Below are positions 49,618 to 64,000 of a DNA stretch of 64,000 nucleotides, in pieces. Below the pieces are notes generated by a model. That model saw only the letters and a program-made list of their open reading frames with translations, had not been told where the DNA came from and searched no databases. Source of the stretch: an uncultured Veillonellaceae bacterium (GTDB taxonomy: Bacteria > Bacillota > Negativicutes > JARBTT01); NCBI GenBank assembly GCA_963805085.1, contig CAWDTA010000002.1, forward strand, positions 576,001 to 640,000, in the 5' to 3' direction. The stretch's first letter is position 1; each line of letters begins with the position of its first letter. The position numbers were made by a program, and so were the translations under genes.

Positions 49618-50177
49618 TTTATCTCCTCCTCGTATAATAAGTTTTGTAAGTAATACTCCGCTATTGTTTACAAATTAAATCTAAATTTTGCAATTTTTTT
49701 CGCACAACTAAGTAATCTCTTGTGTTACCTGTATTCTACTATATATAATTTTTTTTAATATTGTTTTGTTGTTATCTTATCATAATGTTTATTTATGTTT
49801 ATACTTTCTTGCAGTATTTTCTTATGTCGGCACTAGAAGTTATGGTATCATAGCTTATCCTTTTTCTATCTAACTATTTATAAATCAAATAAAGCACTCA
49901 CAAAATTATGAGTGCTTCTGAACTTGATCAGTACTTACTAATTTAAAAGACTATTTCTATTTTGAAATAGTCTTTTACTAGAATTTGCTACCTTATTTAA
50001 CTTTCGTTAATCAGTTTGTTCTCTTTGTATAATTTACATCTAATTCACTTGGAGCGCAGTTAATTACATCATTATTATTTGCACCACACTCTTCTAAATA
50101 AGTAATTGTTGCAAACTCGTCAACAACCATTTATTGAATGGATTAAAGACTGTGTGAAATATATCAATACGAAATAA

Positions 50178-50216
50178 AGCAAGTAGCTGTTACAAAAAAA
50201 GTAACAGCTACTTGCT
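50178..50216. terminator. Terminator after murQ
   Basis: AGCAAGTAGCTGTTAC / GTAACAGCTACTTGCT perfect inverted repeat. Confidence 0.75.
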
Positions 50217-50223
50217 GAGAACC

Positions 50224-51147
50224 TCATTTTAAGGCTGGTTTCACGCTTAATGCCTTACGAATAACCCCATGGGCTTTTTTTAACCGCATCTTAGCTTCTT
50301 CCAGCGTACATGCTTTTTTTATCATAACAATTGCCAGCTTAGGGCTATAGTTAGCCTGTTCCAGAAATTCCTTTGCCATCTCTATGGAAAGTCCGGTAGC
50401 CTGGGCAACAATTCCTTTGGCCCGTTCCAAAAGTTTCACATTGCTGGCCTTCACGTCCACCATCAAATTTCCATACACTTTTCCAATCTGGATCATCGCA
50501 GCCGTCGTAATCATATTCAGTACTAGTTTTTGGGCCGTACCGGCTTTCATGCGGGTAGAACCGGATATAGCCTCCGGACCGACGACTGGTGTGATCGCAA
50601 TTTGGGCTAAATCGCCAATGACCGAATTGGGTGAACAACTAATCGCCATGGTAGTCGCACCAAGATCGTTTGCATACTTAAGTCCGCCCACAACATAGGG
50701 AGTACGTCCACTGGCAGCAATACCGATCAAAACATCGGACACTGACAAACCGATATTTTGCAATTGTCTAATCGCTTCTTCTTCGTCATCTTCAGCACCT
50801 TCGATAGCACTGCGCAAAGCAAGATCACCACCGGCGATCAGACCGACAACGACACTGTCATCAACGCCAAAGGTTGGCGGACATTCAGAAGCATCCAACA
50901 CTCCCAGCCGGCCGCTTGTCCCTGCACCTATGTACACCAGCCGCCCTCCCTGCCGCAGTGCTTCAACTACTTTATCGACAGCTAATGCAACATTGGGTAA
51001 CTCCTTCTCCACAGCATATGCCACTGTCTTATCCTCATCGTTAAGCAACTGTAGCATTTCCACAGTACTTAACTGATCGATATTTCCCGTTTTAGGATTT
51101 CTTTGTTCTGTCATCAAACTCTCTATATCTACTATCAAACTATCCAC
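50224..51147 (-). CDS. murQ: N-acetylmuramic acid 6-phosphate etherase
   Basis: TEQRNP, GAGTSGRLGVLDASECPPTF, GAED and GSTRMKAGTAQK motifs. Confidence 0.96.
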   Translation of the reverse strand: MDSLIVDIESLMTEQRNPKTGNIDQLSTVEMLQLLNDEDKTVAYAVEKELPNVALAVDKVVEALRQGGRLVYIGAGTSGRLGVLDASECPPTFGVDDSVVVGLIAGGDLALRSAIEGAEDDEEEAIRQLQNIGLSVSDVLIGIAASGRTPYVVGGLKYANDLGATTMAISCSPNSVIGDLAQIAITPVVGPEAISGSTRMKAGTAQKLVLNMITTAAMIQIGKVYGNLMVDVKASNVKLLERAKGIVAQATGLSIEMAKEFLEQANYSPKLAIVMIKKACTLEEAKMRLKKAHGVIRKALSVKPALK

Positions 51148-51299
51148 CTCATTAATATTTTGTATCCCTTACCGCTATAACTGAATTACCTTTTCATTAA
51201 ATTACAGTATTCACATATTCTCCAATTTAAAATGTTCTTAACTAACGATTTACGTAAAAAGACTTGGCATAGTACACGTCAATTTTTTTTCGTATTTGT

Positions 51300-52208
51300 T
51301 CACTTCAATGCTTGCAATGCCAGTATTACCGCGCCCGATACAGGTTCAGCCTCAGAACACCTGATATCCACTTTATCTTGCAGCTTAGCAATAACTCGCT
51401 CTCCTACCTGTGGAATCTTTTGCAAAATACTTCCAAACAATACAACTTTTATCTTCGGAGCAGCAACAAATCCTCTGGCTATAACGGATTCAATCAAAGC
51501 AATTATTTTGTCCGCTGCATCCTTTAAAATGGCAATAGCTACCACGTCACCATTCGTTGCAGCGTTAACCACTACTTTGCTGAGTACGGCTACCTGCTTT
51601 TTAGTTGTTTTGGGATGATATATGAAAGTAATTAAATCATCAAAGGATGCGATTTGCAAGAACGTGAAGATGCCAGCTAACAATACAGTAGATTGCTCCA
51701 TACCTTCTGCTGCTTTAATACCTCGCACTAGAGCTTGCCGAGCAATGTAGTAGCCACTTCCTTCATCGCTGACTACATGTCCCCAGCCACCAGCCCGAAA
51801 ATATTCGCCCTGTGCATTTACCCCATAAACAATAGAACCTGTACCAGAAATAGCCACAATACCTTCCCTTTTGCCAATTCCAGCAACCAAAGCAATCTCC
51901 GCATCATTATAGAGGCTATAACGTCCTTTTAATCCCAAATCATCCAGAGCCATGCCAATACTCACCTTATCTTGCTGTCGGTCGACACCTGCCAGCCCTA
52001 AAGAAATGAACCGTAAATCACTACGTTCCAGACCAGTGGTCGCAAATTCATCCAACATGTCGCTGATAAGTTGACCAAATTTAACTATACCAATAACATG
52101 ATGGTTCGAGGCTCCTCTTTCCACCTTCACTAGGATTTTACCATTCCGATCCGCAGCCCAACCGTTGGTCTTGCTGCCACCTCCATCAATCCCTAATACC
52201 CATTCCAT
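51300..52208 (-). CDS. BadF/BadG-type amino-sugar kinase (GlcNAc/MurNAc kinase, MurK-like)
   Basis: GIDGGGSKT, GLAGVD, ISGTGS and RAGGWG..SDEGSG motifs. Confidence 0.85.
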   Translation of the reverse strand: MEWVLGIDGGGSKTNGWAADRNGKILVKVERGASNHHVIGIVKFGQLISDMLDEFATTGLERSDLRFISLGLAGVDRQQDKVSIGMALDDLGLKGRYSLYNDAEIALVAGIGKREGIVAISGTGSIVYGVNAQGEYFRAGGWGHVVSDEGSGYYIARQALVRGIKAAEGMEQSTVLLAGIFTFLQIASFDDLITFIYHPKTTKKQVAVLSKVVVNAATNGDVVAIAILKDAADKIIALIESVIARGFVAAPKIKVVLFGSILQKIPQVGERVIAKLQDKVDIRCSEAEPVSGAVILALQALK

Positions 52209-52345
52209 TGTTTATAAAATCCCTCCTATCATGTCGCTGCTCATTTTAATGACGTCTAGATGATTTGTATAATTAGTTCACTTTAATATTTACCCTAGAT
52301 TATATTCTTATAAATCTCTTAGAAACCGTCTGCCAATACTAAATA

Positions 52346-53443
52346 TTACTTTGCTGAAACCAATATATCTTTGAAGCAAAATGAGCAGCCGGGCTGAATG
52401 TACTCCAACAGAAATAATTCCTCCTTGATTACTTGAGCCACTACATTGGTTCTCGCGTCAATCGGCAATTCGTGACATACCACTTGTAATTCACCCATGT
52501 AACGGAGATACTCGACATTATCAATGGTCACCGCACCACAGGGCCGGGGTAAAGGTAACTGTTTCATAATAGTCTCACGACATAAACTTCGAGCTTCTTG
52601 GGAACGAATAACATGTTCACCCGGATCATTACGATTGGTATGTCTGCCTAAAAGTATAGCTCTTTCCATGCTGCTGATGCCAGGTTTGGTTTCAACCGCA
52701 AGTTCAATACAGCTTTCATCCAAGGCAGCCACTCCGGACAGCTCTTCAAGGGATGCAAACGGATCACCGAAAATTACTGCATCAACCAGTTTGCTGGCAA
52801 ATAAATGTTTTGTCGCAGTAACCGGATTCATATGTCGATGTTGCTCTAGAGACGGCACCCCCTCATATATCGGTCCCCGGGGATTGTTATGTGAAGCAAT
52901 AAAAGCCGCTACCGGTATACCATAACTGCGAAAAAGCTGTGACCGCTCGGCAAAAAGGCGGTACGACAATCCGGTTTCCGGACGAGGATAATAGTTGTGA
53001 CAAGCGCGCAAACGAGCGGGATCAATTCCCTCACCCAAAATAGTATTAAGTATTTTCTGGTCAATTGTGCTGGCGTTCAGTTCAATGTCAAATTCGCTTT
53101 CTTTAACCAATCGAGCGGTTTCGTGAAGGTTAAACCCAAAATCCAGACGCAGCGTGTCAATACCGAGTTTGCATAAATCATCGATATTCCCCTGCGTTAT
53201 TCCTAATAATTCAAATGAAGCTGGAGAAATGTCGGCAGTTATGTAAAAGCCTAACTGCCTTGCATATTTGACCATATTCGTGAATTCATTCAAAATCTTT
53301 TGACTATCAGCCTCGGGAATATGTAAGGAAGTAAAGATCCGTGAATAACCATATTGGTGTGCAGTAAACAAGTATTCTCGAATAGCATCTTCCTTGTACC
53401 CCATGCCGACATAGACCGATATACCTCTTTCCATCGACATCAA
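52346..53443 (-). CDS. mupG: 6-phospho-N-acetylmuramidase (DUF871/MupG family)
   Basis: GISVY, IFTSLHIPE, LRLDFG, LNAST, CHNYYPRPETGL and RYMGELQ motifs; next to murP and murQ. Confidence 0.88.
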   Translation of the reverse strand: MMSMERGISVYVGMGYKEDAIREYLFTAHQYGYSRIFTSLHIPEADSQKILNEFTNMVKYARQLGFYITADISPASFELLGITQGNIDDLCKLGIDTLRLDFGFNLHETARLVKESEFDIELNASTIDQKILNTILGEGIDPARLRACHNYYPRPETGLSYRLFAERSQLFRSYGIPVAAFIASHNNPRGPIYEGVPSLEQHRHMNPVTATKHLFASKLVDAVIFGDPFASLEELSGVAALDESCIELAVETKPGISSMERAILLGRHTNRNDPGEHVIRSQEARSLCRETIMKQLPLPRPCGAVTIDNVEYLRYMGELQVVCHELPIDARTNVVAQVIKEELFLLEYIQPGCSFCFKDILVSAK

Positions 53444-53460
53444 TTCATACCTCCTATTTA

Positions 53461-54798
53461 TTATTCTTCATTTTTAGGATCATCAAAGCCTACAAACCAA
53501 GTAATCGCGAACCCTGCGACATAAGCAATAAACAGACCGATTAGATAATACATAACGCCACCGGGCTTAATTAAAAATGCTAATGACAGCCCGGAGACAC
53601 CTAATGCGATAGACTTAACCTGCATTAACGCCTGAAACGCACCGCCAAATCCGGCGCCTATGCAGGCTGTTATGAAAGGGCGTCCCAGCGGCAAAGTTAC
53701 ACCAAAAATGAGCGGTTCACCTATACCTAGAAAGCCTACCGGCAATGCTCCTTTTATTAATTCCTTAAGTTTTTTATTTTTGGTTTTAAAATAAACAGCA
53801 ATTGTGGCTCCTACTTGACCGCCACCTGCCATGGCCAATATAGGTAAAAGCGGATTTTCCTTCAATGTATTTAACAGTTCCATGTGGACAGGCGTTAATC
53901 CTTGATGCAGGCCGGTCATAACTACAGGCAAAAAGGTACCGGCTAAAACAAAACCAGCAAGAAGGCCACCCGAACTTATCATAAATTTAAAAAACCCTAT
54001 AATGCCATCCGATAGATATCCGCCTATCGGTTGTAAGATATAGTATGTAGCAAATCCTGTAACAAGTAAAGTTAAGGTCGGAGTTACGATGATGTCAATC
54101 GCAGTCGGAACAAATTTACGCAACCGTTTTTCCACAACGCTCATAAACCAAGCCACCAGCAGTACGCCAACTAGACCACCACGTCCTGGAACCAACGCCA
54201 TTCCACTAATTTTTATGGTAGCAATCGCCGGATTGATAATCAAAACACCAGCTAAGCCCCCCATAGCAGGCGACCCGCCAAATTCCTTTGCTGCATTTAT
54301 ACCGACAAAAACGCCTAGATAGGAAAAAATACCCCAGCCAATTACATTTAGTATGGAGATCAATGCCCCCTGAGGATCAGCGCCGCAGCGAATTGCCACA
54401 TTCGTTATGCCGGCGACCATGCCGGAACCAACAATAGCTGGCATCAGCGGTACAAAAATACTAGATAATTTCTGTAAAAATAATTTGAAGGGAGTACGGT
54501 TTTTATCCTTATATGCGGCTTTAAGATCATTAACTTCTCCCATCGCTAGATTAGTCAAATCGCTAAACTCTGCAGCTACCTTATTTACTACACCTGGTCC
54601 GAGAATGATTTGAAGTTGCCCTGCTTGTTCCAAAGTGCCCAAAACTCCAGAGATTTGTTTGAGCTTAGTAATATCAACCTTTTCCAAAGAACTGATTGTC
54701 AGCCTTAGTCTGGTCATACAATGCGTTGCAGCGGCAATATTCTCTGTTCCTCCAACGGTATTAATTATTTGTTGAGCCAAATCTCGTTCCTTTGCCAT
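53461..54798 (-). CDS. murP: PTS EIIBC component, MurNAc type
   Basis: HCMTRLR phospho-Cys motif; GLHQGLTP, LAMAGGGQVG and GIGEPLIFGV motifs. Confidence 0.88.
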   Translation of the reverse strand: MAKERDLAQQIINTVGGTENIAAATHCMTRLRLTISSLEKVDITKLKQISGVLGTLEQAGQLQIILGPGVVNKVAAEFSDLTNLAMGEVNDLKAAYKDKNRTPFKLFLQKLSSIFVPLMPAIVGSGMVAGITNVAIRCGADPQGALISILNVIGWGIFSYLGVFVGINAAKEFGGSPAMGGLAGVLIINPAIATIKISGMALVPGRGGLVGVLLVAWFMSVVEKRLRKFVPTAIDIIVTPTLTLLVTGFATYYILQPIGGYLSDGIIGFFKFMISSGGLLAGFVLAGTFLPVVMTGLHQGLTPVHMELLNTLKENPLLPILAMAGGGQVGATIAVYFKTKNKKLKELIKGALPVGFLGIGEPLIFGVTLPLGRPFITACIGAGFGGAFQALMQVKSIALGVSGLSLAFLIKPGGVMYYLIGLFIAYVAGFAITWFVGFDDPKNEE

Positions 54799-54876
54799 TA
54801 TTCTACCCCCATAAAATTCTAATTAAGATCATACATTTACTAATTTTTTAGAATGGATGAGTTTTGCAACAAACTC

Positions 54877-56109
54877 CTAGAAGGAAATCGTTACATCCCA
54901 TCCATATTTTTTAGCTCTTTCATCCGTAACTAGGTTTTTGTAATCACCATACCAAGTTTCTGTATAAAGCGTAGGATTAATATGATGAACAACGATAGCA
55001 CGATACCCTTTATAACCTTGCTTACCACCAAGTGTACCATATTCATTACCCCACCAACTCAAATGGTCACCATTTTCCGCTGGAAGATTTAGATTACCTT
55101 CTTGTTTCCAATACTGAAGAATGATCTCATCTTTTTTAATCGTTTTCCATAATTGAAGTTTGTACATTTTATTATTGTCATCCGCTTCAGTATTTTCAGC
55201 ATAACCACCTGAAATATTCAAGCCATCAGGGAGCGTATAGCCAACAGTTACCAGAGGAATTTTAGTTGATTTATTCTTGTCTATAATAGCATTTTTACCT
55301 GTCATATAATGAACCCCCAAATCAATGCTACCAAATTTTCCTCCAATCGTACCATAGGCAATCGTACTATCAATATTACCTTCGTAACGACCAAGCAAGC
55401 CAAAGAAAGTAAGTTTATCGGACAACTTCGTTGTAATATCGCCGCCCCTTACAGTATCATCCATCAACATACCATTCGCTAACCAATACACTTTTTTACC
55501 AATATTAATTGTAGTCTTTGGTGAGACTTTGTAAGTAAAGAAATTCTGCCGGGTTCTCCACGTAGTATCTTTTGTACCACTAGCAGTATCTAAATAATCT
55601 TTATTTTTTAGCTCGTAAAGAACACTCAGCTTATCATTGATTGGTTTTTGTGCACGTATACGAACTTGCACATTATATTCATGCAGCTCCTTATTTCCAT
55701 AGGAATGACCATATGTATTTTCAGTTTGAGCCCACCCATTTATTTTCCAGTCGCTAACACCGGCCGTTTTCTTTTCCAGATTATCCATGCGAACCCCAAG
55801 GCTTTGCAGTTCGTCTTTGTATTCAATTGCTAATTTATCAATAACAGCTTTTTGCTCCGCATTTGCTTTATTCGATCTATAGATCGCTTTTCCTACTAGT
55901 TGGGCCATTTCATAACGAGTAATGCTCTTATCGCCTTTAAAAGTACCATCACTATAACCGTCAATGAGACTTGCCTCTGCTAAATTTTTCACTGCAGCAT
56001 ATGACCAATCATTTGGAGAAACATCCGCAAAAGGATTAGGCGATGCAAATGCAGTCCCTACACTCAATACACAAGCTGCTACCACGCTGGCAATAATTTT
56101 TTTATTCAT
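54877..56109 (-). CDS. SLH-domain outer-membrane porin (OmpM-like paralogue)
   Basis: Signal peptide; FADV...W.Y...GY.DGTFKG...TRYEMAQ SLH motif; C-terminal Phe. Confidence 0.85.
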   Translation of the reverse strand: MNKKIIASVVAACVLSVGTAFASPNPFADVSPNDWSYAAVKNLAEASLIDGYSDGTFKGDKSITRYEMAQLVGKAIYRSNKANAEQKAVIDKLAIEYKDELQSLGVRMDNLEKKTAGVSDWKINGWAQTENTYGHSYGNKELHEYNVQVRIRAQKPINDKLSVLYELKNKDYLDTASGTKDTTWRTRQNFFTYKVSPKTTINIGKKVYWLANGMLMDDTVRGGDITTKLSDKLTFFGLLGRYEGNIDSTIAYGTIGGKFGSIDLGVHYMTGKNAIIDKNKSTKIPLVTVGYTLPDGLNISGGYAENTEADDNNKMYKLQLWKTIKKDEIILQYWKQEGNLNLPAENGDHLSWWGNEYGTLGGKQGYKGYRAIVVHHINPTLYTETWYGDYKNLVTDERAKKYGWDVTISF

Positions 56110-56504
56110 TCTCTTACTCTCCTCATTTGGATTTTCTGATCCTAAGCAGGTACATGGTTACTGGTCTTTTAGCTTAACCTCACTCATACTCTCACCACCT
56201 TTTTTGTCGGAATAAAGAGGCAGAATTTTACGAAAACTATTGGTATAATCTAGTAAAAGGATATGGCTTATTGTGATTGCCTCCACTTGCCTATTAGATG
56301 GGCTTCTTATGGACACTTCGTCCTTTGGTACGATTGCTAAGTACGAAACAATTTATCACCTTCTTAGCAAACTTTAGGTTTTATAGAAAATCAATCTACC
56401 GTTTATTCCTTAAGTAACTTTAAGTTTAGCCATGCAAATAAAAAATTTAGTGAAGTTTGCCATTGGCAAGACTCAAGACTGTGCCTATTACTTTAAGCTC
56501 ATTA

Positions 56505-56561
56505 GCCGTCACTTTAGAGTCACCATGTTTTTATTATATACTGCCGTCACCTAGCCGTCAA
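56505..56561 (-). promoter_or_regulatory. Promoter facing the porin-mur operon, overlapped by GCCGTCA repeats
   Basis: Minus strand TTGACG(56561)-N17-TATAAT(56538). GTCA cores at 56508/56519 and 56546/56557, each pair 11 bp apart. Confidence 0.7.
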
Positions 56562-56626
56562 TATGTCATGATGAATTATTTTGCGATATATTAAAATTGT
56601 CATAATGACTACATGGAGGGATTGAA

Positions 56627-56803
56627 ATGCCGTCAAAATTGCCCAAATTTACACTTCGTATTAATCAGGAAAGTCTTGAAAAACTTCGATATATTGCTGA
56701 TAACAATTTTCGAACCGTTAATAAAGAATTAGAAATGCTCATCAAGACACATATTTCCGCATATGAAAAAGAACACGGCGTAATAAATGTCGAAAATACA
56801 TAA
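56627..56803 (+). CDS. Arc-family ribbon-helix-helix DNA-binding protein (58 aa, below the ORF-track cutoff)
   Basis: GGAGG RBS; MPSKLPKFTLRINQESLEKLRYIADNNFRTVNKELEMLI... fits the Arc pattern (FTLR strand, then helices with RTVNxE); followed by a terminator. Confidence 0.85.
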   Translation: MPSKLPKFTLRINQESLEKLRYIADNNFRTVNKELEMLIKTHISAYEKEHGVINVENT

Positions 56804-56820
56804 TTCCAAAATTAATAGCA

Positions 56821-56860
56821 GAAAAGCCAATTCCCATCACGCAAAGGGAATTGGCTTTTT
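56821..56860 (+). terminator. Terminator after the arc-like gene
   Basis: AAAAGCCAATTCCC / GGGAATTGGCTTTT inverted repeat. Confidence 0.75.
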
Positions 56861-56929
56861 CACTATTATTAAATTTTCGTAGACAAAATAACTCCATAAA
56901 ATACTAAGATTCACGGCTTTGCAAGTCGT

Positions 56930-56962
56930 GGGTCGAGTGTTCGAATCGCCCCAGGCGCACCA
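56930..56962 (+). pseudogene. 3' fragment of a tRNA (tRNA-Arg-like), probable att-site remnant
   Basis: GGGTCGAGTGTTCGAATCGCCCCAGGCGCACCA has a T-loop, a 3' acceptor strand and CCA, but no matching 5' half upstream. Confidence 0.65.
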
Positions 56963-57348
56963 TATAAATCAATAGCGCATGGCAATGGTCACGAAATGGT
57001 CACAATAAATTATTATTGTGACCATTATTTTATGCAAAAAATTTTCCGAGGATTTCCTCAGAAACTCTTTATTATGAATTTTAGAAAAATCAATAATGCT
57101 CAAAAGTATACGTTTTGGTGCTACTGGCTATTTTTTATTATAAAGGCAGGAATTTATGTAAATCTATTGAATAAGTAGCTGTTAAGTTTAAAGAATCTAT
57201 TTTATATAAGTTCTTTTTCCTGTAATCTAACTTAGAAAGTGTTACAGACAAAATAGTGAAAAAACATCAAAAAAAAATATTGATAATTGTGATTTAATGT
57301 GAAAATAATGTTAATTGATTTTGATGCTTTTCGTATAGGGAGGAAAAT

Positions 57349-58173
57349 ATGATAGTAGAGCATCCTAATATAAAAAGTCCTTCGAGTAATATTCCATTAT
57401 GGCGTTACATGGATTTTTCTAAATTCGTCGCATTGTTAGAAAAAAAATCTTTATACTTTTGCAGAGGAGACATTTTAAAAAATATAGACCCTTACGAAGG
57501 CTCATATACGAAAAGCGAACTTGAATTTTTGGATACGCAGGCAATGCTGATTACCAAAGGTGATCCAAAAGAGCGATATGAAATGATGAGATATATCAAT
57601 CATGCTAGTCAAGAATATAGTTCAGGGACAACATTTATAAATTGCTGGCATGCGAATAGTCGTGAAAGTGTAGCTATGTGGCGAGTTTTTATATCTTCTA
57701 ATACTGGGATAGCTATAAAAACTGATTTTGATTCTCTAAAACAAAGCCTTATTTCAGCTAAACCAGAAATATTTGCATCGGTTATTCAATACATTGACCA
57801 TTATCACGACAATATTTCATATGAGGCTAATGTCTTACTTCCCATGACGCGTAAAAACTTAGCTTATGAATATGAACAAGAAGTTAGGTTGATGTTCATG
57901 TATTCTGACTCACCGCCAGAATATGAAGATACCATAATTAATGGTCAACACTCAGTGCATGCCTTACCATCTAAACTTCCTGGAATTGATATACCGATAA
58001 ACCTTGACGAACTCATTAAAGAAATTTATATTGACCCTAAAGCTGATCAATGGTTTGTTGAACTGGTGAAAGAGGTTTTTGAAACCTATAAGAAAAAGCA
58101 TGCCCTTAAAATAAAACCTTTTATTAGAAAATCAGAGTTATCCTATAATGGATTGCAATATGTTAAGCCTTAA
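57349..58173 (+). CDS. DUF2971-like protein
   Basis: LWRYM...LYF, FINCW...ES.AMW..., GIAI and K...YEYEQEVR pattern; GGAGG RBS. Confidence 0.65.
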   Translation: MIVEHPNIKSPSSNIPLWRYMDFSKFVALLEKKSLYFCRGDILKNIDPYEGSYTKSELEFLDTQAMLITKGDPKERYEMMRYINHASQEYSSGTTFINCWHANSRESVAMWRVFISSNTGIAIKTDFDSLKQSLISAKPEIFASVIQYIDHYHDNISYEANVLLPMTRKNLAYEYEQEVRLMFMYSDSPPEYEDTIINGQHSVHALPSKLPGIDIPINLDELIKEIYIDPKADQWFVELVKEVFETYKKKHALKIKPFIRKSELSYNGLQYVKP

Positions 58174-58330
58174 GCATTATAAATATAGATAGATTAGTCG
58201 GTTTTATAAATATTATAATACTTCCCGATTATAATATTTTCAGACAATTTCAGCATAGGTTACTTGAAAAAGAAAATAAGACGAGTTGCTATGAAAAGTA
58301 TAATTACTTATCGTAGCATTCGTAAGTACT

Positions 58331-59676
58331 GGTAGTGCTGAAATAATTGTGTAAACCTCCAATGTTAGGTAAAATAAAACTAATATTGGAGGTATTTTAT
58401 TATGGCAAATAAAGAAAACAACAAGCTCAAAGAGCTTATCAAAGAGTATGGTATTAAAGACATGAATGATGTCCATGATTTTGTCAAAATGCTTACAGCT
58501 GAAACCATCCAGACAGCTCTTGATGCTGAACTGGATGAAGAACTTGGATACTCCAAATATGACTACAAAAATAAGAAGACAAAGAATAGTCGCAATGGCT
58601 ATTCTTCTAAAACCGTTCAAAGTTCCAACGGAGAGCTGGAACTTAAAATTCCCCGTGATCGCGACGGCGATTTTGAACCACAATTAGTAAAAAAACATCA
58701 AACAGATATTTCGACCATAGAAGATAAAGTGATTTTTCTTTACTCACAAGGTGTATCCACTCGCGATATCCAAAAAACAATGCAAGAAATGTATGGCATT
58801 GATGTAGACGACAGCCGTGTTTCAAGAATTACAGATAAACTGCTGCCGCTCATTAATGAATGGCAAGAACGCCCGTTACAAACGATCTATGCGATGGTTA
58901 TTTTAGATGCCATTCATTACAATGTCCGTGAAAATGGCATTGTTACAAAAAAAGCTGCATATGTTGCCATTGGTACGGATTTAGAGGGGCAGAAAGATGT
59001 TTTAGGCATTTGGTTAGGTGCGAGTGAATCCTCTAAATATTGGCTTTCTATACTGAATGGATTGAAAAATCGTGGCGTTCAAGATATTCTTATTGTATCG
59101 GTAGACGGTTTATCTGGATTTGTAGAAGCCATCAATGTTGCTTTTCCTCAAACAGAAGTGCAACGCTGTGTAATTCATCAAATTCGTGCTTCGACACGTT
59201 ACGTATCTTATAAAGACGTTAAGCAATTTACTGCTGATCTAAAACCGATTTATAAAGCCCCAACAGAAGAGGCCGCCTTATTTGCTTTAGATGAATTTGA
59301 GGCTAAATGGAATTCGAAATATCCGTTAGGCGTAAAATCTTGGAGGGCTAATTGGAATGAACTCTCTACCATGTTCAAATATTCGCCAGAAATACGCAAA
59401 TTAATTTATACAACCAATGCGATTGAAAATTTCAACCGTCAATTACGAAAAGTAACCAAGACAAAAAGTGCTTTTGTTTCGGATAATGCTTTAATGAAAT
59501 TGCTATATTTAACAACGATGAACATCGTCGATAAATGGACAATGCCAATTCGAAATTGGGGCATGATACTCGATAACCTCATGATTTATTTTGGCGATCG
59601 AATTAAAATTTCTTTATAAAACTCAACTTAATTTTATCCTGATATTTGGACTTTACACAAAAATTTACGCACTCTC
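58331..59676 (+). mobile_element. IS256-family insertion sequence
   Basis: Imperfect terminal IRs GGTAGTGCTGAAATAATTGTGTAAA vs GAGAGTGCGTAAATTTTTGTGTAAA (19/25); no matching target duplication. Confidence 0.88.
58402..59619 (+). CDS. IS256-family (mutator-type) transposase
   Basis: RNGY, PRDRDGDF, LDAIH, VDGL, QRCVIH and IYTTNAIE motifs. Confidence 0.96.
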   Translation: MANKENNKLKELIKEYGIKDMNDVHDFVKMLTAETIQTALDAELDEELGYSKYDYKNKKTKNSRNGYSSKTVQSSNGELELKIPRDRDGDFEPQLVKKHQTDISTIEDKVIFLYSQGVSTRDIQKTMQEMYGIDVDDSRVSRITDKLLPLINEWQERPLQTIYAMVILDAIHYNVRENGIVTKKAAYVAIGTDLEGQKDVLGIWLGASESSKYWLSILNGLKNRGVQDILIVSVDGLSGFVEAINVAFPQTEVQRCVIHQIRASTRYVSYKDVKQFTADLKPIYKAPTEEAALFALDEFEAKWNSKYPLGVKSWRANWNELSTMFKYSPEIRKLIYTTNAIENFNRQLRKVTKTKSAFVSDNALMKLLYLTTMNIVDKWTMPIRNWGMILDNLMIYFGDRIKISL

Positions 59677-59698
59677 TATTTTTGGAATGCAAAGCAAC

Positions 59699-59743
59699 AA
59701 AATAAGCGGAAAAAATCTAACACGATTTTTTCCGCTTATTTTT
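59699..59743. terminator. Hairpin terminator
   Basis: AAAATAAGCGGAAAAAATC / GATTTTTTCCGCTTATTTT inverted repeat. Confidence 0.7.
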
Positions 59744-59952
59744 CTACGCTACTAACCTACGAGCAACTCATCGCAAAAACGAATAAACACATTAGTTAAC
59801 GCATATCATTCCAAACAACAAACTCTTTAAATGTGCTGGACAGGGGTTTACAATATTCGCTTTTATTTTACGCCATTTCACATAATTTTTTCACGATAAG
59901 GTTTTTTTAGTAATAATAAACTTCTTTAAAATCAAAAATACCTTTTACATTT

Positions 59953-61029
59953 CTATTCATCATGTATAGGCGCAGGTTTATATGTAAGCTCTGATATCCT
60001 ATAAGATTCTATATTCATGCATTTTAAACTTTCTTCATCAAAAAACGCAATGTTTCTTCCATCTCTATGCATTGCACTCTTATATTCAATTCCATCAAAA
60101 CCAATACTTTTTATATAATCACTTATATATTGAGTAGGTAAATAATCTAATGAACTATCCTGCCGCCTTAATGGTTTTGATATTTCATCTCCGATTTTTT
60201 TAAGATTTGGCAAATTTATTGCTAGTAAACTGCTATCAATGTCACTAAAAGGGCTAATTTTATCTATTGTAGCTAAGTTCACAACTTTAACATCTTTTTT
60301 TAATTTATATTTTGCTATGGTAATATCATCATATACTCCAGCTCGAATTTCATGGTATGTGGTTTGTTTTGAATCCGCTAAATATAGACAACTGATTCCT
60401 TCGGAGTTAACCCTGCCAGCAGTTGCCTTATCAACAGGTGGAGCACCCATTTCTTTTTTTTCAAATCCATGTATATGCCTATCATCCCAAATTCTCGCTC
60501 GATAAAACTCATGCCCTTTTTTATATGTTTTTTTCATTCCTTCTATGATAGTTTTTAATATATTTTTATTGATAATATTCGTGTGAAACCTGTTTTTATT
60601 CTTTATTTCTCCTACAAAATCTTCCCACTGATAATTTCCTAGTATAGAATATACTTTCATGTATTCTTTATTAACACTATCAGCAATCCAAACAGGAGCA
60701 TCAAACAACTCAGGTTGTTCTTTATATTTCTCGGGAAAAAGCTTTATTAAAAAATCATATATTTGCATCGCATCCAAATTAAATATATTCCAATGCAAAC
60801 TTAATACATTTTTCATCAATTCTGCTTCTCTTGGATACGGTTTTTCGATTCCTGCAACAGGAGTATATACATCTAATAATGATTCAAAACTATCTTTTAA
60901 ATTTTTATTTTCTTCTATCTTGCAAATATAAACATTATCATTATTGCAAAAATCACATTTTCCTTTTTCTTTCCCTTTAATAATATCTATAATTTCTTTA
61001 TCCTTAAAACATTTTACACAACAATTCAT
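59953..61029 (-). CDS. RES-domain protein (NAD+-active family) with N-terminal Cys-rich domain
   Basis: N-terminal CCVKC...CDFC; FYRAR, MGAPP...GRVN.EGISCLY.A...HEIR, DYLPTQYISDYIK..GFDGIEYKS. Confidence 0.85.
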   Translation of the reverse strand: MNCCVKCFKDKEIIDIIKGKEKGKCDFCNNDNVYICKIEENKNLKDSFESLLDVYTPVAGIEKPYPREAELMKNVLSLHWNIFNLDAMQIYDFLIKLFPEKYKEQPELFDAPVWIADSVNKEYMKVYSILGNYQWEDFVGEIKNKNRFHTNIINKNILKTIIEGMKKTYKKGHEFYRARIWDDRHIHGFEKKEMGAPPVDKATAGRVNSEGISCLYLADSKQTTYHEIRAGVYDDITIAKYKLKKDVKVVNLATIDKISPFSDIDSSLLAINLPNLKKIGDEISKPLRRQDSSLDYLPTQYISDYIKSIGFDGIEYKSAMHRDGRNIAFFDEESLKCMNIESYRISELTYKPAPIHDE

Positions 61030-61030
61030 C

Positions 61031-61969
61031 TTACTTCACCTTATCAAGATAATTACCAACAAGTTCTAAATGATGCATTAGTGAAAATTTCTTTACACTA
61101 CCAAGTCCAGGATAAGTTTGATCTTTATAATGATTCAAAAAATACTTTAACCCTAACGTATGAGGAATATTTTTTTTCTCAACCCAAGCAACCAACTGCT
61201 CAACAGCTTCATAAAATTTTTTCGCTGGATTTTGAATATCACTATTAGATTTGGAGACAAAATGATGAATCCGTAGTGTTTTATCTTTATCGAAATAAAT
61301 TATATGTATTGCAACCGCATATGGAGCAAACCCTGCTTCCAAATAAGCTTTTCCAACTATTGAGTAATCTGCAAAGCCTAAAAAACCTTCACTATCATAA
61401 AACAAATGATCTTCTGAAAAAAACTCATCTTCATTGTTTCTGTAATCTGAATTTCTATCACATTTTTCAAATCTATCTTCGAAAAGAATTTTATTTCCAC
61501 TACGAACTTTGCGTCTAAATTCATCAGGAATGAGTACATACTGAGGACTGTCTATAGAAAAAACAGTTTGGTATTTACCTAAGCAATCTCGATTATTATT
61601 AATCACAAGCCACTCTTCTTTTTCAATTCCAATCTCTTTTTCCCATGACAAAAGCTCTTTATCTGAATTTAGGTTCATTATGTGCGATTTTATTACACAT
61701 GGGCTACTTAACAAATCAATAAATTTCTTTCTATTCTCGTCCTCTTCCTCAAGTTTCATATCACTAGAAAATGATCCTACCGCAGGATTACAAACAATAC
61801 AAAAACGCTTATTTTTTCGAATGAACTCAGAAATTGTCTTAAATAACGTAGATGATAATTTTACCGGCTCAATAATTGGCAAAACATATCGGCTTAGTAA
61901 CTCTTTTTCAACTAATTCTCGCAATGCTAGTAATTCATACTGACGCCCTCTTACATAAGGAAAATACAT
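61031..61969 (-). CDS. sce7725-family-like protein
   Basis: MYFPYVRGRQYELLAL start after GGAGG; PIIEPV, NSDY..DEFFS.DH, GFADYSIVG...G..PYAVAIH, HFVS and PGLG..KK.S..HH motifs. Confidence 0.75.
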   Translation of the reverse strand: MYFPYVRGRQYELLALRELVEKELLSRYVLPIIEPVKLSSTLFKTISEFIRKNKRFCIVCNPAVGSFSSDMKLEEEDENRKKFIDLLSSPCVIKSHIMNLNSDKELLSWEKEIGIEKEEWLVINNNRDCLGKYQTVFSIDSPQYVLIPDEFRRKVRSGNKILFEDRFEKCDRNSDYRNNEDEFFSEDHLFYDSEGFLGFADYSIVGKAYLEAGFAPYAVAIHIIYFDKDKTLRIHHFVSKSNSDIQNPAKKFYEAVEQLVAWVEKKNIPHTLGLKYFLNHYKDQTYPGLGSVKKFSLMHHLELVGNYLDKVK

Positions 61970-61973
61970 TATT

Positions 61974-62822
61974 TTACCTCCCATAACGCTCATTTAGAAA
62001 ATCTGACAATTTATTGTAATCTTTTTCAGTAGGATTATAAAAATACATCAATGATTTTAATTCATAAGGCACTTTCAAAAACCAATCTTTAACAATATTA
62101 TTTCGCTTTTTTAACATTTTTAAAAACATTGAATAAACTTGCTCTAAGGGAATTTGTGAAAACCATTTAAAACATTCATCATAAAAAAATACAGGTGTAG
62201 ATTCTGGCAATTTATTATAATAACTCAAGATAATATTTTCAAATTCTTTTTTACGCAAAACCTTGAAAATCGCTTCATGTGTCAAATGTGTATTATCCTC
62301 TTGTGCTTCTTTTTTAATCTGTAAAGTATTCTTTTTTGTTAAAATGTAGATTCCCACATTTTTTCCTTCCAATAGAAAGCTAATTTTAGAATAATTATCT
62401 TCACTTGTAACAACGCAAACATAATTAAAAGACTTATAATAATCTGCGATCTGTGTTTCTAACCGTTCAAAACTATCTAATTCTGTTTTTATTTCATACA
62501 CTACTGCTTTTCCATTTATCATCACAAAATCTGCTTTTGATTTTCCAATAGGCACCTGTGTCAGCGCTGTAGTGGTATTGACGCTATGACGTCCCAACAG
62601 CAATTTATTCAACAATGTATTTTGATAAAAATATTCATTTCTATAATTTTTCGACATATATTTGTATATTTTGCTAATTATCTCACCATTTTTGCTACTA
62701 GATTCATCTTGTAAATATCTCTGAACTATTGTCCCATATATATGGTTATTATGCTTCATTATCAAATCCCGAAAAATATATTGCGTAAATAACCTATTCA
62801 AAACTAAATTATTATTTTCCAT
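61974..62822 (-). CDS. sce7726-family-like protein with a PD-(D/E)xK nuclease-like motif
   Basis: YRNEYFYQN; SKADFVMING...YEIKTELDS..RL..QI.DY...F; GGAGG RBS. Confidence 0.75.
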   Translation of the reverse strand: MENNNLVLNRLFTQYIFRDLIMKHNNHIYGTIVQRYLQDESSSKNGEIISKIYKYMSKNYRNEYFYQNTLLNKLLLGRHSVNTTTALTQVPIGKSKADFVMINGKAVVYEIKTELDSFERLETQIADYYKSFNYVCVVTSEDNYSKISFLLEGKNVGIYILTKKNTLQIKKEAQEDNTHLTHEAIFKVLRKKEFENIILSYYNKLPESTPVFFYDECFKWFSQIPLEQVYSMFLKMLKKRNNIVKDWFLKVPYELKSLMYFYNPTEKDYNKLSDFLNERYGR

Positions 62823-63018
62823 AACCCTCCCCCCAATTTCTTAAAACTAAAACCTTACTATTATCATACAACAACAATACAAAGAAATATACCTTACTCC
62901 ATAATTAATAATCACCAAATTTATAAACAAATCTACAAGTCAGCAGTATATTAGGATCTTTAGCCCCTTGGGGTCAGGCTTAAGTTATATGTAAAATCGA
63001 CTTATTCTTCTTTAATCT

Positions 63019-63579
63019 TTAATTTTTAGTTAACTCTTGACAAATTCTTGTAATATTGGCTGGATCAATCTGTAGTACTTTGGCTAACTGCGTCCTTGTC
63101 ATTAAATCTCTCTCAAGCACTTCATAAATCAATCGCTTTCTAGCTGCTACTACCTTCCGTATCCGGCACTTCCCTACCAATTTCTCTTGACTTATTTCTT
63201 CCTCTACAGTAATCTTCTCTACGAGCTGTTCCCATGTTAACTTCGTTCGGCTTTGTTCCATTTTTGCTTGTAATAGAGTTTTTTGAGTCTCTTTCCCTTG
63301 TTCGTTTTCAACGCTATATTCCAGCTTATCAACGGCAGCCCCTACTAAAATCAGATACTGTGCCCTTGCCTGCTCAGTATTCGTACTCAATGTATTTAAT
63401 ATAAATTCTACATTTACTAATCCCGGTGCTCTTCTAACATATGACAGATGGCTGCTCCACCTATAGTCCACCCCTTCCAGCATGCTTGCCCGTACTGGAT
63501 TTTGATGAATATAACATATAAGAGCCATTAGATAACTCTCTTTCTCACAGATAAAGGCCTTGTAGCGTTGTTCAAATAC
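63019..63579 (-). pseudogene. 5'-truncated REP-associated tyrosine transposase (RAYT / Y1 family)
   Basis: Frame extends upstream as VFEQRYKAFICEKESYLMALICYIHQNPVRA...YRWSS, with a C-terminal HTH. The N-terminal HUH half is missing and replaced by a palindrome. Confidence 0.8.
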
Positions 63580-63582
63580 AAA

Positions 63583-63641
63583 AAACGCGGGGACAGGGGC
63601 TATGTTTCCTTATTTAAAACAACATCCCTGTCCCCGCGTTT
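63583..63641. repeat. REP-like palindrome
   Basis: AAACGCGGGGACAGGG (63583-63598) / CCCTGTCCCCGCGTTT (63626-63641), perfect 16-bp arms. Confidence 0.7.
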
Positions 63642-63893
63642 CTAAACCCAAATAATTATTCTTATTCATTCATCACCTACTATAATACAATATTATCCAT
63701 TATACTACACAACATGAAATAACTACAAAATTAACAAAACGTTAATTGAAAAAACAGGACTAAATTAATAGCCCTGTTTTATATGCTTACTATATATCTA
63801 ATTATCGTATTGACAAATCATGATATACTAAAGGTAAGATGTACTGAAACGGAAGCGGTTTGCTTAATCTGCCCCAAAAGGCAGGTGTTGCCA

Positions 63894-63962
63894 ATGGAGA
63901 ATATAATCATAATACTCATTATGATTTTTTTAATTCTCGTTGAAATGCAAAACAACCGCTAA
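63894..63962 (+). CDS. Putative type I toxin-antitoxin toxin peptide (22 aa, MENIIIILIMIFLILVEMQNNR)
   Basis: Extended -10 TGATATACT (63821). SD GGCAGGTG sits in the hairpin CTGCC/GGCAG. Single hydrophobic helix; strong hairpin 63949-63991. Confidence 0.6.
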   Translation: MENIIIILIMIFLILVEMQNNR

Positions 63963-64000
63963 TCCCCTCGAAAAGTTTTAGCGGTTGTTTTTCTTAAAAA

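Follow-up and report, generated by a model that had tools for sequence, protein, structure and literature searches.

Three adjoining genes form one conserved unit in the window, by which we mean the whole 64,000-nt stretch of contig CAWDTA010000002.1 that was analysed; all positions are given in window coordinates. The genes lie on the minus strand at 59953-62822, and they encode, in this order, an sce7726-family nuclease (gene 1), an sce7725-family protein with a triosephosphate isomerase (TIM) barrel (gene 2) and a protein with a RES domain (gene 3). The cassette is a distant relative of the gop-beta-cII system of satellite phage P4 and of the systems called TIM-B, and is not a wholly new kind of system. 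The cassette probably serves in defence as a module of the abortive-infection or toxin-antitoxin-like type, and sce7725 would restrain RES, and perhaps the nuclease, until infection. The copy in the window is intact and, as part of the same overall explanation, was probably acquired horizontally. What is new here is the co-directional sce7726-sce7725-RES variant: RES and nuclease effectors were already sketched computationally in the main text of an October 2026 preprint (10.64898/2026.10.19.760177).

An earlier annotation of this DNA, hereafter the original prediction, had described three co-oriented, AT-rich genes separated by only 4 nt and 1 nt. The open reading frame (ORF) coordinates agree with this description, and the GC content is 0.25-0.33 over 59500-63000 versus 0.36-0.51 over 50000-57000. 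By the first-start rule, the gene 2 ORF would cover 61031-61993. Because all 39 aligned homologues start at MYFPY, we take the ATG at 61969 as the real start of gene 2, which gives a protein of 312 aa. The near-touching, co-directional genes suggest a single transcript and coupled translation.

The unit was recognized from related loci. One genome per species was scanned with the sce7725 alignment, 295 relatives were obtained, and the best 80 loci of other species were kept and scored with hidden Markov models (HMMs) of the three proteins. In 69 of the 80 loci, all three genes were intact and in the order nuclease, TIM barrel, RES. Only RES was broken or truncated in three further loci, and both sce7725 and RES were broken in one. 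Three loci have a partial nuclease, which in one case is so only by the criterion of 80% coverage. In L048, sce7725 is split and RES is intact, two loci (L011 and L047) are without RES, and one ends at a contig edge. A RES sequence lies directly downstream of sce7725 in 77 loci, usually overlapping it or within a few bases. The linkage of the trio is far beyond chance, as its gene order is kept in 77 of the 80 loci. The hosts are mostly Bacillota, and Spirochaetales, Melainabacteria, 'Ca. Muiribacterium' and Anaerolinea-labelled metagenome-assembled genomes (MAGs) are also represented. In a sample of 401 genomes from the phylum of the window, eight (its own genome included) pass the sce7725 cut-off. 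The trio is present at all eight of these loci, and in one of them RES spans two ORFs. It should be mentioned that loci L002-L008 were kept out of the 80-locus counts because at least two of them are duplicates (L004/L035 and L002/L032 have identical E-values). The immediate neighbours vary in size, strand and spacing across the 80 loci, and there is no conserved fourth gene.

The same trio was also found far from the Bacillota. In Salmonella enterica subsp. houtenae (AGRM01000005, L102 6092-8960), it is carried as cargo of an integrative and conjugative element (ICE), beside an integrase and close to a gene for a caspase-like (ICE p20) protease, and its sce7725 and RES proteins share 32% and 26% identity with those of the window. 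These data bear on the idea that RES is an unrelated neighbour whose adjacency in the window is accidental. NCBIfam names a two-gene pair only, and pairs without RES exist, as expected from this idea. However, the conservation count refutes it, a trio persists in a gammaproteobacterium at 26-32% identity, and the predicted sce7725-RES complex described below scores, weakly, above all controls. Moreover, the identities of 45-65% and the varied flanks of the 80 loci argue against one recently spread element. An accidental neighbour is therefore extremely unlikely.

More distant sce7725 relatives were collected from IMG/VR, where 31 distinct loci were compared; L116-L124 and L134, which have identical coordinates and E-values, were counted once. 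The full trio was found in ten of these loci. Two start with sce7725-RES at a contig edge, and one contains a fragmented sce7725 with RES. Nine contain the nuclease-TIM barrel pair without RES, two have the reversed order with helix-turn-helix (HTH) and peptidase genes upstream, four have sce7725 with two genes of about 230 aa that have no Pfam family, and three are uninformative. From these arrangements we conclude that the nuclease-TIM barrel pair is the core, to which a large clade has added RES as an effector.

Gene 1 matched NF033832 (sce7726_fam) with 187.8 bits (cut-off 70, E 1.7e-55) over profile positions 1-183 of 184, and no Pfam family was matched even at E <= 10. The original prediction had noted a D...ExK motif (KADF...YEIK) in this protein. 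The motif is real: the signature E63...D98...E110-x-K112 was invariant in all 23 aligned homologues. In the AF2 model (predicted local distance difference test, pLDDT, 82.1), N-terminal helices are followed by a restriction-endonuclease (REase)-like core (residues about 60-172) and a C-terminal SAP/HeH-like helical domain (about 181-240). Gene 1 is the sole PADLOC match of the trio, to the model 'cll' (P4 cII of gop-beta-cII; 5.9e-16). Conversely, P4 cII reaches 151.4 bits on NF033832 and carries the RefSeq label 'sce7726 family protein'. By BLASTP, gene 1 and P4 cII are similar across the catalytic motif (2e-08, 34% identity over 53 residues). The original prediction had held that the sce7725/sce7726 pair might still be unnamed; as gene 1 is already modelled as 'cll' and P4 cII is an sce7726-family protein, this part of the claim did not stand.

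Gene 2 matched NF033831 (sce7725_fam) over the full profile (positions 1-312 of 312; 347.5 bits, cut-off 60, E 9.1e-104), so that with NF033832 for gene 1 and Pfam RES for gene 3, the family searches that had been advised all gave matches above their cut-offs. The large sce7725 family falls into 1246 clusters at 50% identity and 4446 at 90%. The AF2 model of gene 2 is a TIM-barrel-like alpha/beta protein (pLDDT 92.3, predicted template modelling score 0.92). Eight residues, Y2, E34, P35, N173, D201, H222, S239 and H300, were invariant in 40 diverse homologues. They are mostly polar and sit at or right after predicted strands, which suggests an active site at the C-terminal face of the barrel. 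Thus, sce7725 is probably an enzyme. The original prediction had supposed that the middle protein senses or scaffolds; the conserved polar residues point to an enzyme and not to a passive scaffold, and the sensing part of the supposition is taken up below. A sequence search of the PDB with the sce7725 profile gave no match at E <= 1. The top viral structural match of the model in BFVD was an uncharacterised Gordonia phage protein (E 9.5e-10, TMq 0.60).

The relation of sce7725 to P4 beta was measured by profile-profile alignment. P4 beta is the founder of the Pfam family Beta_protein (PF14350), which it matches at 4.3e-56. A first hhalign of 46 sce7725 against 8 Beta sequences gave 85.4% (E 5.9e-06) over the first 58 columns only, with the shared pattern Y-x-P-x-L-R...E..AL..L...I-P-I-x-E. 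When distant IMG/VR sce7725 proteins and 17 more Beta proteins were added, a second hhalign gave 94.4% (E 9.1e-08) over 285 columns, which is nearly the full length of both families. D201 of sce7725 falls in the same motif as the invariant D241 of Beta (FADYS versus YGDHGS). In addition, a local HMM of the 8 Beta proteins matched sce7725 ORFs in 13 of the 38 IMG/VR loci that have one, with a best E-value of 2e-09 in a small search space. Because of the full-length profile-profile match, the TIM-barrel fold and the cII-like nuclease partner, we place sce7725 in the same superfamily as Beta_protein. Within this superfamily, sce7725 is a sister family of Beta_protein and lies outside PF14350 as drawn: the Pfam gathering score of 27 bits is not reached by sce7725, and the window's own genome holds no PF14350 match.

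Gene 3 is, by its sequence, a divergent RES protein. Pfam RES (PF08808) matched residues 198-334 with 58.9 bits (gathering score 23.2, E 8.2e-16), and RES was matched in all 26 aligned homologues. Invariant in these 26 proteins were R177, R179, G205-R206-x-N208, E227, R229, Y296, Q300, S318 and N326, in agreement with the intact R, E and S residues reported by the original prediction. The N-terminal CxxC...CxxC module was likewise confirmed: two of its cysteines, C7 and C25, never vary, and the other two, C4 and C28, are conserved in at least 90% of the homologues. PF18870 (HEPN_RES_NTD1) matched the N-terminal half of 10 of the 26 homologues (best 2.3e-05), and the window copy gave no match to it at E <= 0.01. 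The search for relatives gave 1127 full-length proteins at E <= 1e-3, of which the named ones carry the labels 'RES family NAD+ phosphorylase' or 'RES domain-containing protein'. When the RES profile was searched against PDB sequences, only ParT 6d0i (E 0.88, with the GRxN...E motif) and an unrelated synthase were found. From the motif alignment to ParT, R206, E227 and S318 would correspond to the catalytic residues of MbcT and ParT. These two RES relatives destroy NAD+ or ADP-ribosylate an essential target, and we propose that gene 3 encodes an NAD+-consuming or ADP-ribosylating effector. The cassette shares with Xre-RES, MbcA-MbcT and ParS-ParT the RES domain with conserved R, E and S residues. 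In contrast to those systems, it has no Xre/MbcA (DUF2384) antitoxin gene, an absence pointed out in the original prediction and borne out by the lack of any Pfam family for genes 1 and 2 at E <= 10; its partners are a TIM barrel and a nuclease. Furthermore, its RES protein is about twice as long and carries the N-terminal Zn-ribbon / HEPN-RES-NTD1 module.

The physical relation of gene 2 to gene 3 was predicted by co-folding. The predicted sce7725-RES complex had a score of 0.58 (median of three runs), and the best control scored 0.00; the pLDDT of the partners was at least 82 and the contact agreement between runs was at least 68%. In the calibration of this score, 58 of 80 solved complexes reached the mark, as did 2 of 110 mismatched pairs. 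Passing scores of 0.60 or less were obtained for only 7 of the 80 complexes and for both mismatched pairs. The co-fold slightly favours a direct contact between sce7725 and RES, and it leaves binding versus enzymatic control undecided.

Satellite phage P4 carries gop-beta-cII, which defends E. coli from lambda and P1. In the absence of beta, Gop is toxic, and gop/beta is described as a toxin-antitoxin-like pair (Rousset et al. 2022, PMC9122126). The cell death caused by gop-beta-cII is reported to be triggered by the phage gene orf184 (bioRxiv 10.1101/2023.04.06.535777). Like gop-beta-cII, the cassette contains a cII-like nuclease of the sce7726 family and a beta-like TIM barrel of similar length. 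Both comprise three genes, both are found on mobile DNA, and in both the third, effector gene adjoins the TIM-barrel gene (in P4, this is the toxic Gop). However, the effector of the cassette is a 358-aa Zn-ribbon and RES protein, whereas Gop has 133 aa. The arrangement also differs. Nuclease, TIM barrel and effector are all co-directional in the cassette, whereas P4 has gop-beta with a convergent cII. In P4, 27 nt separate the cII and beta ORFs, and the terminator annotated for cII overlaps the end of beta. The convergent arrangement was seen again in Bacillota, in 8 of the 11 Beta_protein (PF14350) loci returned from 10 genomes (L091-L099 and L101; 9 distinct places). In these 8, the gene convergent with beta encodes a cII-like protein of 200-250 aa and overlaps the 3' end of beta; the other 3 hold gene fragments or lack the pair. 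The PADLOC check suggested by the original prediction recognized gene 1 as 'cll'. The model Rst_gop_beta_cll asks for gop, beta and cll; neither 'beta' nor 'gop' was matched at E <= 10, and the cassette, although it would work like this system, would not be called by this model.

The October 2026 preprint, a computational study, gives the name 'TIM-B' to Beta_protein (PF14350), as a TIM barrel coupled to alternative effectors (10.64898/2026.10.19.760177). In its main text, TIM-B is related to the deazaguanine transglycosylases TGT and DpdA, the effectors include a RES-family toxin and an REase with a C-terminal HeH domain, HTH and ImmA/IrrE peptidase partners are described, and Gop is predicted to be a two-transmembrane effector (10.64898/2026.10.19.760177). 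The same source proposes for TIM-B the role of a constitutive negative regulator, whose action would depend on a product of its enzymatic activity or on a covalent mark. The TIM barrel, the REase with an SAP/HeH domain, the RES partner and, in distant relatives (L138-L140), the HTH and ImmA/IrrE partners were found independently in this study. The main text of the preprint differs from our results in that it contains neither sce7725/sce7726 ('sce77' has 0 occurrences there) nor the co-directional three-gene order. PD-lambda-2 is the second relative with experiments. It is a three-gene abortive-infection system composed of a HigB-like protein, an Xre-peptidase protein and a 'P4 phage antitoxin'-like protein (Vassallo et al. 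2022, PMC9519451). The sce7725 relatives in L138-L140 have the same HTH and ImmA/IrrE peptidase partners as PD-lambda-2. In contrast, the trio of the window is without HigB-like, HTH or Peptidase_M78 proteins (Pfam), and has a RES effector and a nuclease gene.

With regard to these three IMG/VR loci, the distant sce7725 relatives at L138 3435-6770, L139 4092-6788 and L140 4153-6514 are accompanied by HTH_3 and ImmA/IrrE (Peptidase_M78) genes. L138 also carries an HSDR_N-like nuclease, and in L138 and L139 sce7726 lies downstream, not upstream.

On this basis we infer a defence function, the direction of restraint, a trigger and a RES substrate as follows. In the uninfected cell, sce7725 would keep the downstream RES protein, and possibly also the upstream cII-like nuclease, inactive. 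The restraint may consist in binding to the effector, or in the synthesis of an inhibitory product or the attachment of a covalent mark. RES would be freed on infection, or by another insult that lifts the restraint by sce7725. The freed RES would destroy NAD+ or ADP-ribosylate an essential target, as in MbcT and ParT, and the SAP/HeH-bearing PD-(D/E)xK nuclease would attack DNA. The outcome would be abortive infection or growth arrest. The original prediction had proposed a module of three parts, two effector-like enzymes and a protein encoded between them, and this architecture is supported by the linkage in 77 of the 80 loci, by the conserved motifs and by the homology to parts of gop-beta-cII.

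Several observations weigh against this mechanism or against the kinship behind it. By BLASTP, sce7725 and P4 beta show no similarity (best E 0.40), and the Pfam Beta_protein and PADLOC 'beta' models miss sce7725 even at E <= 10. The link of TIM-B to deazaguanine transglycosylases made in the preprint is only faintly echoed for sce7725: no TGT or DpdA was among the 50 matches listed of any of three PDB searches, and in BFVD queuine tRNA-ribosyltransferases appear at ranks 5, 15, 21 and 25 (E 2e-3 to 5e-2). The modelling of the complex, another check advised by the original prediction, gives weak support by the calibration of the tool itself. A defence role is argued by analogy with distant relatives, as the 34% identity of gene 1 to P4 cII over 53 residues illustrates. 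Full-text literature searches aimed at the cassette and its relatives found no experiment on any sce7725-RES cassette; to this extent, the earlier statement that the pair is uncharacterised stood. The split sce7725 beside an intact RES in L048 is awkward for an essential antitoxin, although this locus comes from a MAG. Finally, the beta-like protein of PD-lambda-2 is reported to be required for defence and not for neutralisation of the toxin (PMC9519451). Because the beta-like protein of that system is not the antitoxin, the word 'restrains' may be wrong for sce7725, and 'senses' may be right.

A more specific form of the proposed restraint can be formulated, in which sce7725 would be an enzymatic 'antitoxin', that is, a TIM-barrel transferase that holds off two effectors. 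It would continuously make a small molecule, or it would place a covalent mark on RES, in the N-terminal Zn-ribbon/NTD1 module, and perhaps on the nuclease as well; interference by the phage with the activity or substrate pool of sce7725 would be the signal of infection. We regard this specific form as speculative and rather unlikely.

To examine defence-island enrichment, the proteins encoded directly to the left and right of the 80 loci (140 in all) were compared with PADLOC at E <= 1e-5. As the control, we took every ORF of 90 aa or more (114 in total) in seven 20-kb stretches placed arbitrarily in the genome of the window; this control is small and comes from one genome. PADLOC matched 29 of the 140 neighbours and 16 of the 114 control ORFs (Fisher p = 0.19), and this difference is not a significant enrichment. 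When only clear, near full-length defence proteins were counted by our own judgement, the numbers were 12 of 140 and 5 of 114 (p = 0.21). The original prediction had itself stated that a lack of such enrichment would speak against a defence role, and both results count against the module proposed here. It should be mentioned that the test is blunt: PADLOC matches at 1e-5 were mostly generic ATPase, radical-SAM and helicase proteins in both sets, and three control matches belong to one CRISPR adaptation module, which was there by chance. Clear defence genes adjoin the cassette in at least 11 of the 80 loci. They are DRT-SLATT, JetC with PDC-M26A, Type I, IIG and III restriction-modification, AbiQ, HEC-05, HEC-06/Orf5 and PDC-S01, PDC-S27 and PDC-S28. 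These neighbours, like the mobile, AT-rich setting of the cassette, speak for the proposed module.

The absence of significant enrichment would also be expected if the cassette were an addiction (toxin-antitoxin) module that stabilises mobile elements or serves competition between them, with RES as the toxin, sce7725 as the antitoxin and the nuclease as an accessory or regulator. RES proteins are classic type II toxin-antitoxin toxins. The cassette is carried on mobile DNA, namely beside IS256 in the window, as ICE cargo in Salmonella and on prophage or viral contigs in IMG/VR, and the description of P4 gop/beta as a toxin-antitoxin-like pair points in the same direction (PMC9122126). However, both relatives with experiments are reported to protect against phage (PMC9122126, PMC9519451), and toxin-antitoxin-like and abortive-infection roles do not exclude each other. 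Moreover, neither the conservation of a third gene, with its invariant nuclease motif, nor the existence of sce7726-sce7725 pairs without RES in 9 of the 31 IMG/VR loci is accounted for by a simple toxin-antitoxin pair. An addiction module of this kind is a minority explanation, to which we give a low probability.

Those pairs without RES would also fit a modification-restriction-like role of nuclease and TIM barrel. Here the barrel, as a relative of transglycosylases, would label self DNA or RNA through base exchange, the nuclease would cut molecules that lack the label, and RES would be a back-up suicide effector added in one clade. The DNA-binding SAP/HeH-like domain of the nuclease, the queuine tRNA-ribosyltransferases returned by BFVD for the sce7725 model and the relation of TIM-B to TGT/DpdA argued in the main text of the preprint (10.64898/2026.10.19.760177) are consistent with base exchange. 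In contrast, no TGT or DpdA chain appeared among the PDB matches listed, and no conserved gene for substrate synthesis lies beside the trio, where the neighbours vary and no search was aimed at deazapurine-synthesis genes. Furthermore, P4 beta is described as counteracting the membrane toxin Gop, which is not a matter of DNA. Such a modification-restriction pair appears quite improbable to us.

To our knowledge, the mechanisms of gop-beta-cII and PD-lambda-2 are unsolved, and nobody has shown the role of beta/TIM-B. The sce7725-RES cassette, which ranges from Bacillota to Gammaproteobacteria, is a very common branch of the beta/TIM-B superfamily, and the defence models used here miss it, as PADLOC 2.0.0 recognises gene 1 only. 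As the chemistry of RES effectors is easily measured, the cassette is a tractable model for the role of beta/TIM-B; if sce7725 were indeed an enzymatic antitoxin, it would be the most tractable one, with NAD+ loss as a simple read-out. Proof of defence and of control of RES by the TIM barrel would annotate thousands of 'sce7725/sce7726 family' genes. Such proof would also test the 2026 prediction of a transglycosylase-like enzyme as an immune regulator. The window itself is ordinary: it holds one intact copy of the cassette in an AT-rich island flanked by an insertion sequence (IS).

The features of this island are given in Table 1. The IS256 neighbour named in the original prediction is present and intact. 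Two other claims about the surroundings did not hold. A tRNA remnant had been placed at the start of the island, but ARAGORN found no tRNA in 50000-64000, and Rfam gave no tRNA match at E <= 1 in 54000-64000; the only tRNAs of the window found by ARAGORN lie at 36881-37123, and a short remnant could escape both programs. For the 169-aa ORF that had been called a pseudogene of a REP-associated tyrosine transposase (RAYT), neither Pfam nor NCBIfam returned a transposase family at E <= 0.01.

Table 1. Positions of the cassette genes and of nearby features in the window
Feature	Position	Strand	Length	Match or remark
Gene 1, sce7726-family / P4 cII-like PD-(D/E)xK nuclease	61974-62822	-	282 aa	
Gene 2, sce7725-family TIM-barrel protein, divergent P4 beta relative	61031-61969	-	312 aa	
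Gene 3, N-terminal CxxC...CxxC module (HEPN/RES-NTD1-like) and RES domain	59953-61029	-	358 aa	
Terminator-like hairpin	59699-59742	-		19-pair stem, T-rich tail; about 210 nt past the RES stop codon, by the IS256 end
IS256 transposase, intact	58402-59619			NF033543, E 2.1e-128
DUF2971 protein	57349-58173	+	274 aa	Pfam 8.7e-05; PADLOC PDC-S31 1.2e-15; phrog_34615 1.7e-52
Arc-like ORF	56627-56803			Nearest DNA-binding gene, 3 kb from the trio across IS256
ORF	63019-63528	-	169 aa	Weak MarR/AdcR-like and DnaA C-terminal HTH matches
Second long hairpin	63570-63654			Surfaced only through chance-level Rfam miRNA-precursor matches

The hairpin downstream of RES may serve as the terminator of the operon. 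It is the sole terminator-like site in 59600-63200, a number not above chance, as shuffled sequences gave a mean of 0.8 (standard deviation 0.9). A promoter scan gave 28 sites, against 20.5 +/- 4.3 in shuffles, and is uninformative in DNA this rich in AT. The DUF2971 gene, a single-gene defence candidate by its PDC-S31 match, shares the AT-rich island of the trio, and IS256 lies between them.

A match to 'Listeria phage LM 4-14-1' was rejected; it is an UNVERIFIED_ORG contig without annotation, and nothing was drawn from it. In the RES-less locus L047 (2767-4413), a DUF6119 protein (5.3e-27) and then an AAA_21/AbiEii-like ATPase are encoded downstream of the pair, and these genes may be a replacement of the effector or merely a neighbouring system. 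In four IMG/VR loci (L132, L133, L136 and L145), a 282-aa sce7725 relative is preceded by co-directional genes of about 229 aa and 231 aa, which have no Pfam family and no sce7726 HMM match and may be a further set of partners. The two hairpins in Table 1 could be palindromes of the IS type or of the repetitive extragenic palindromic (REP) type.

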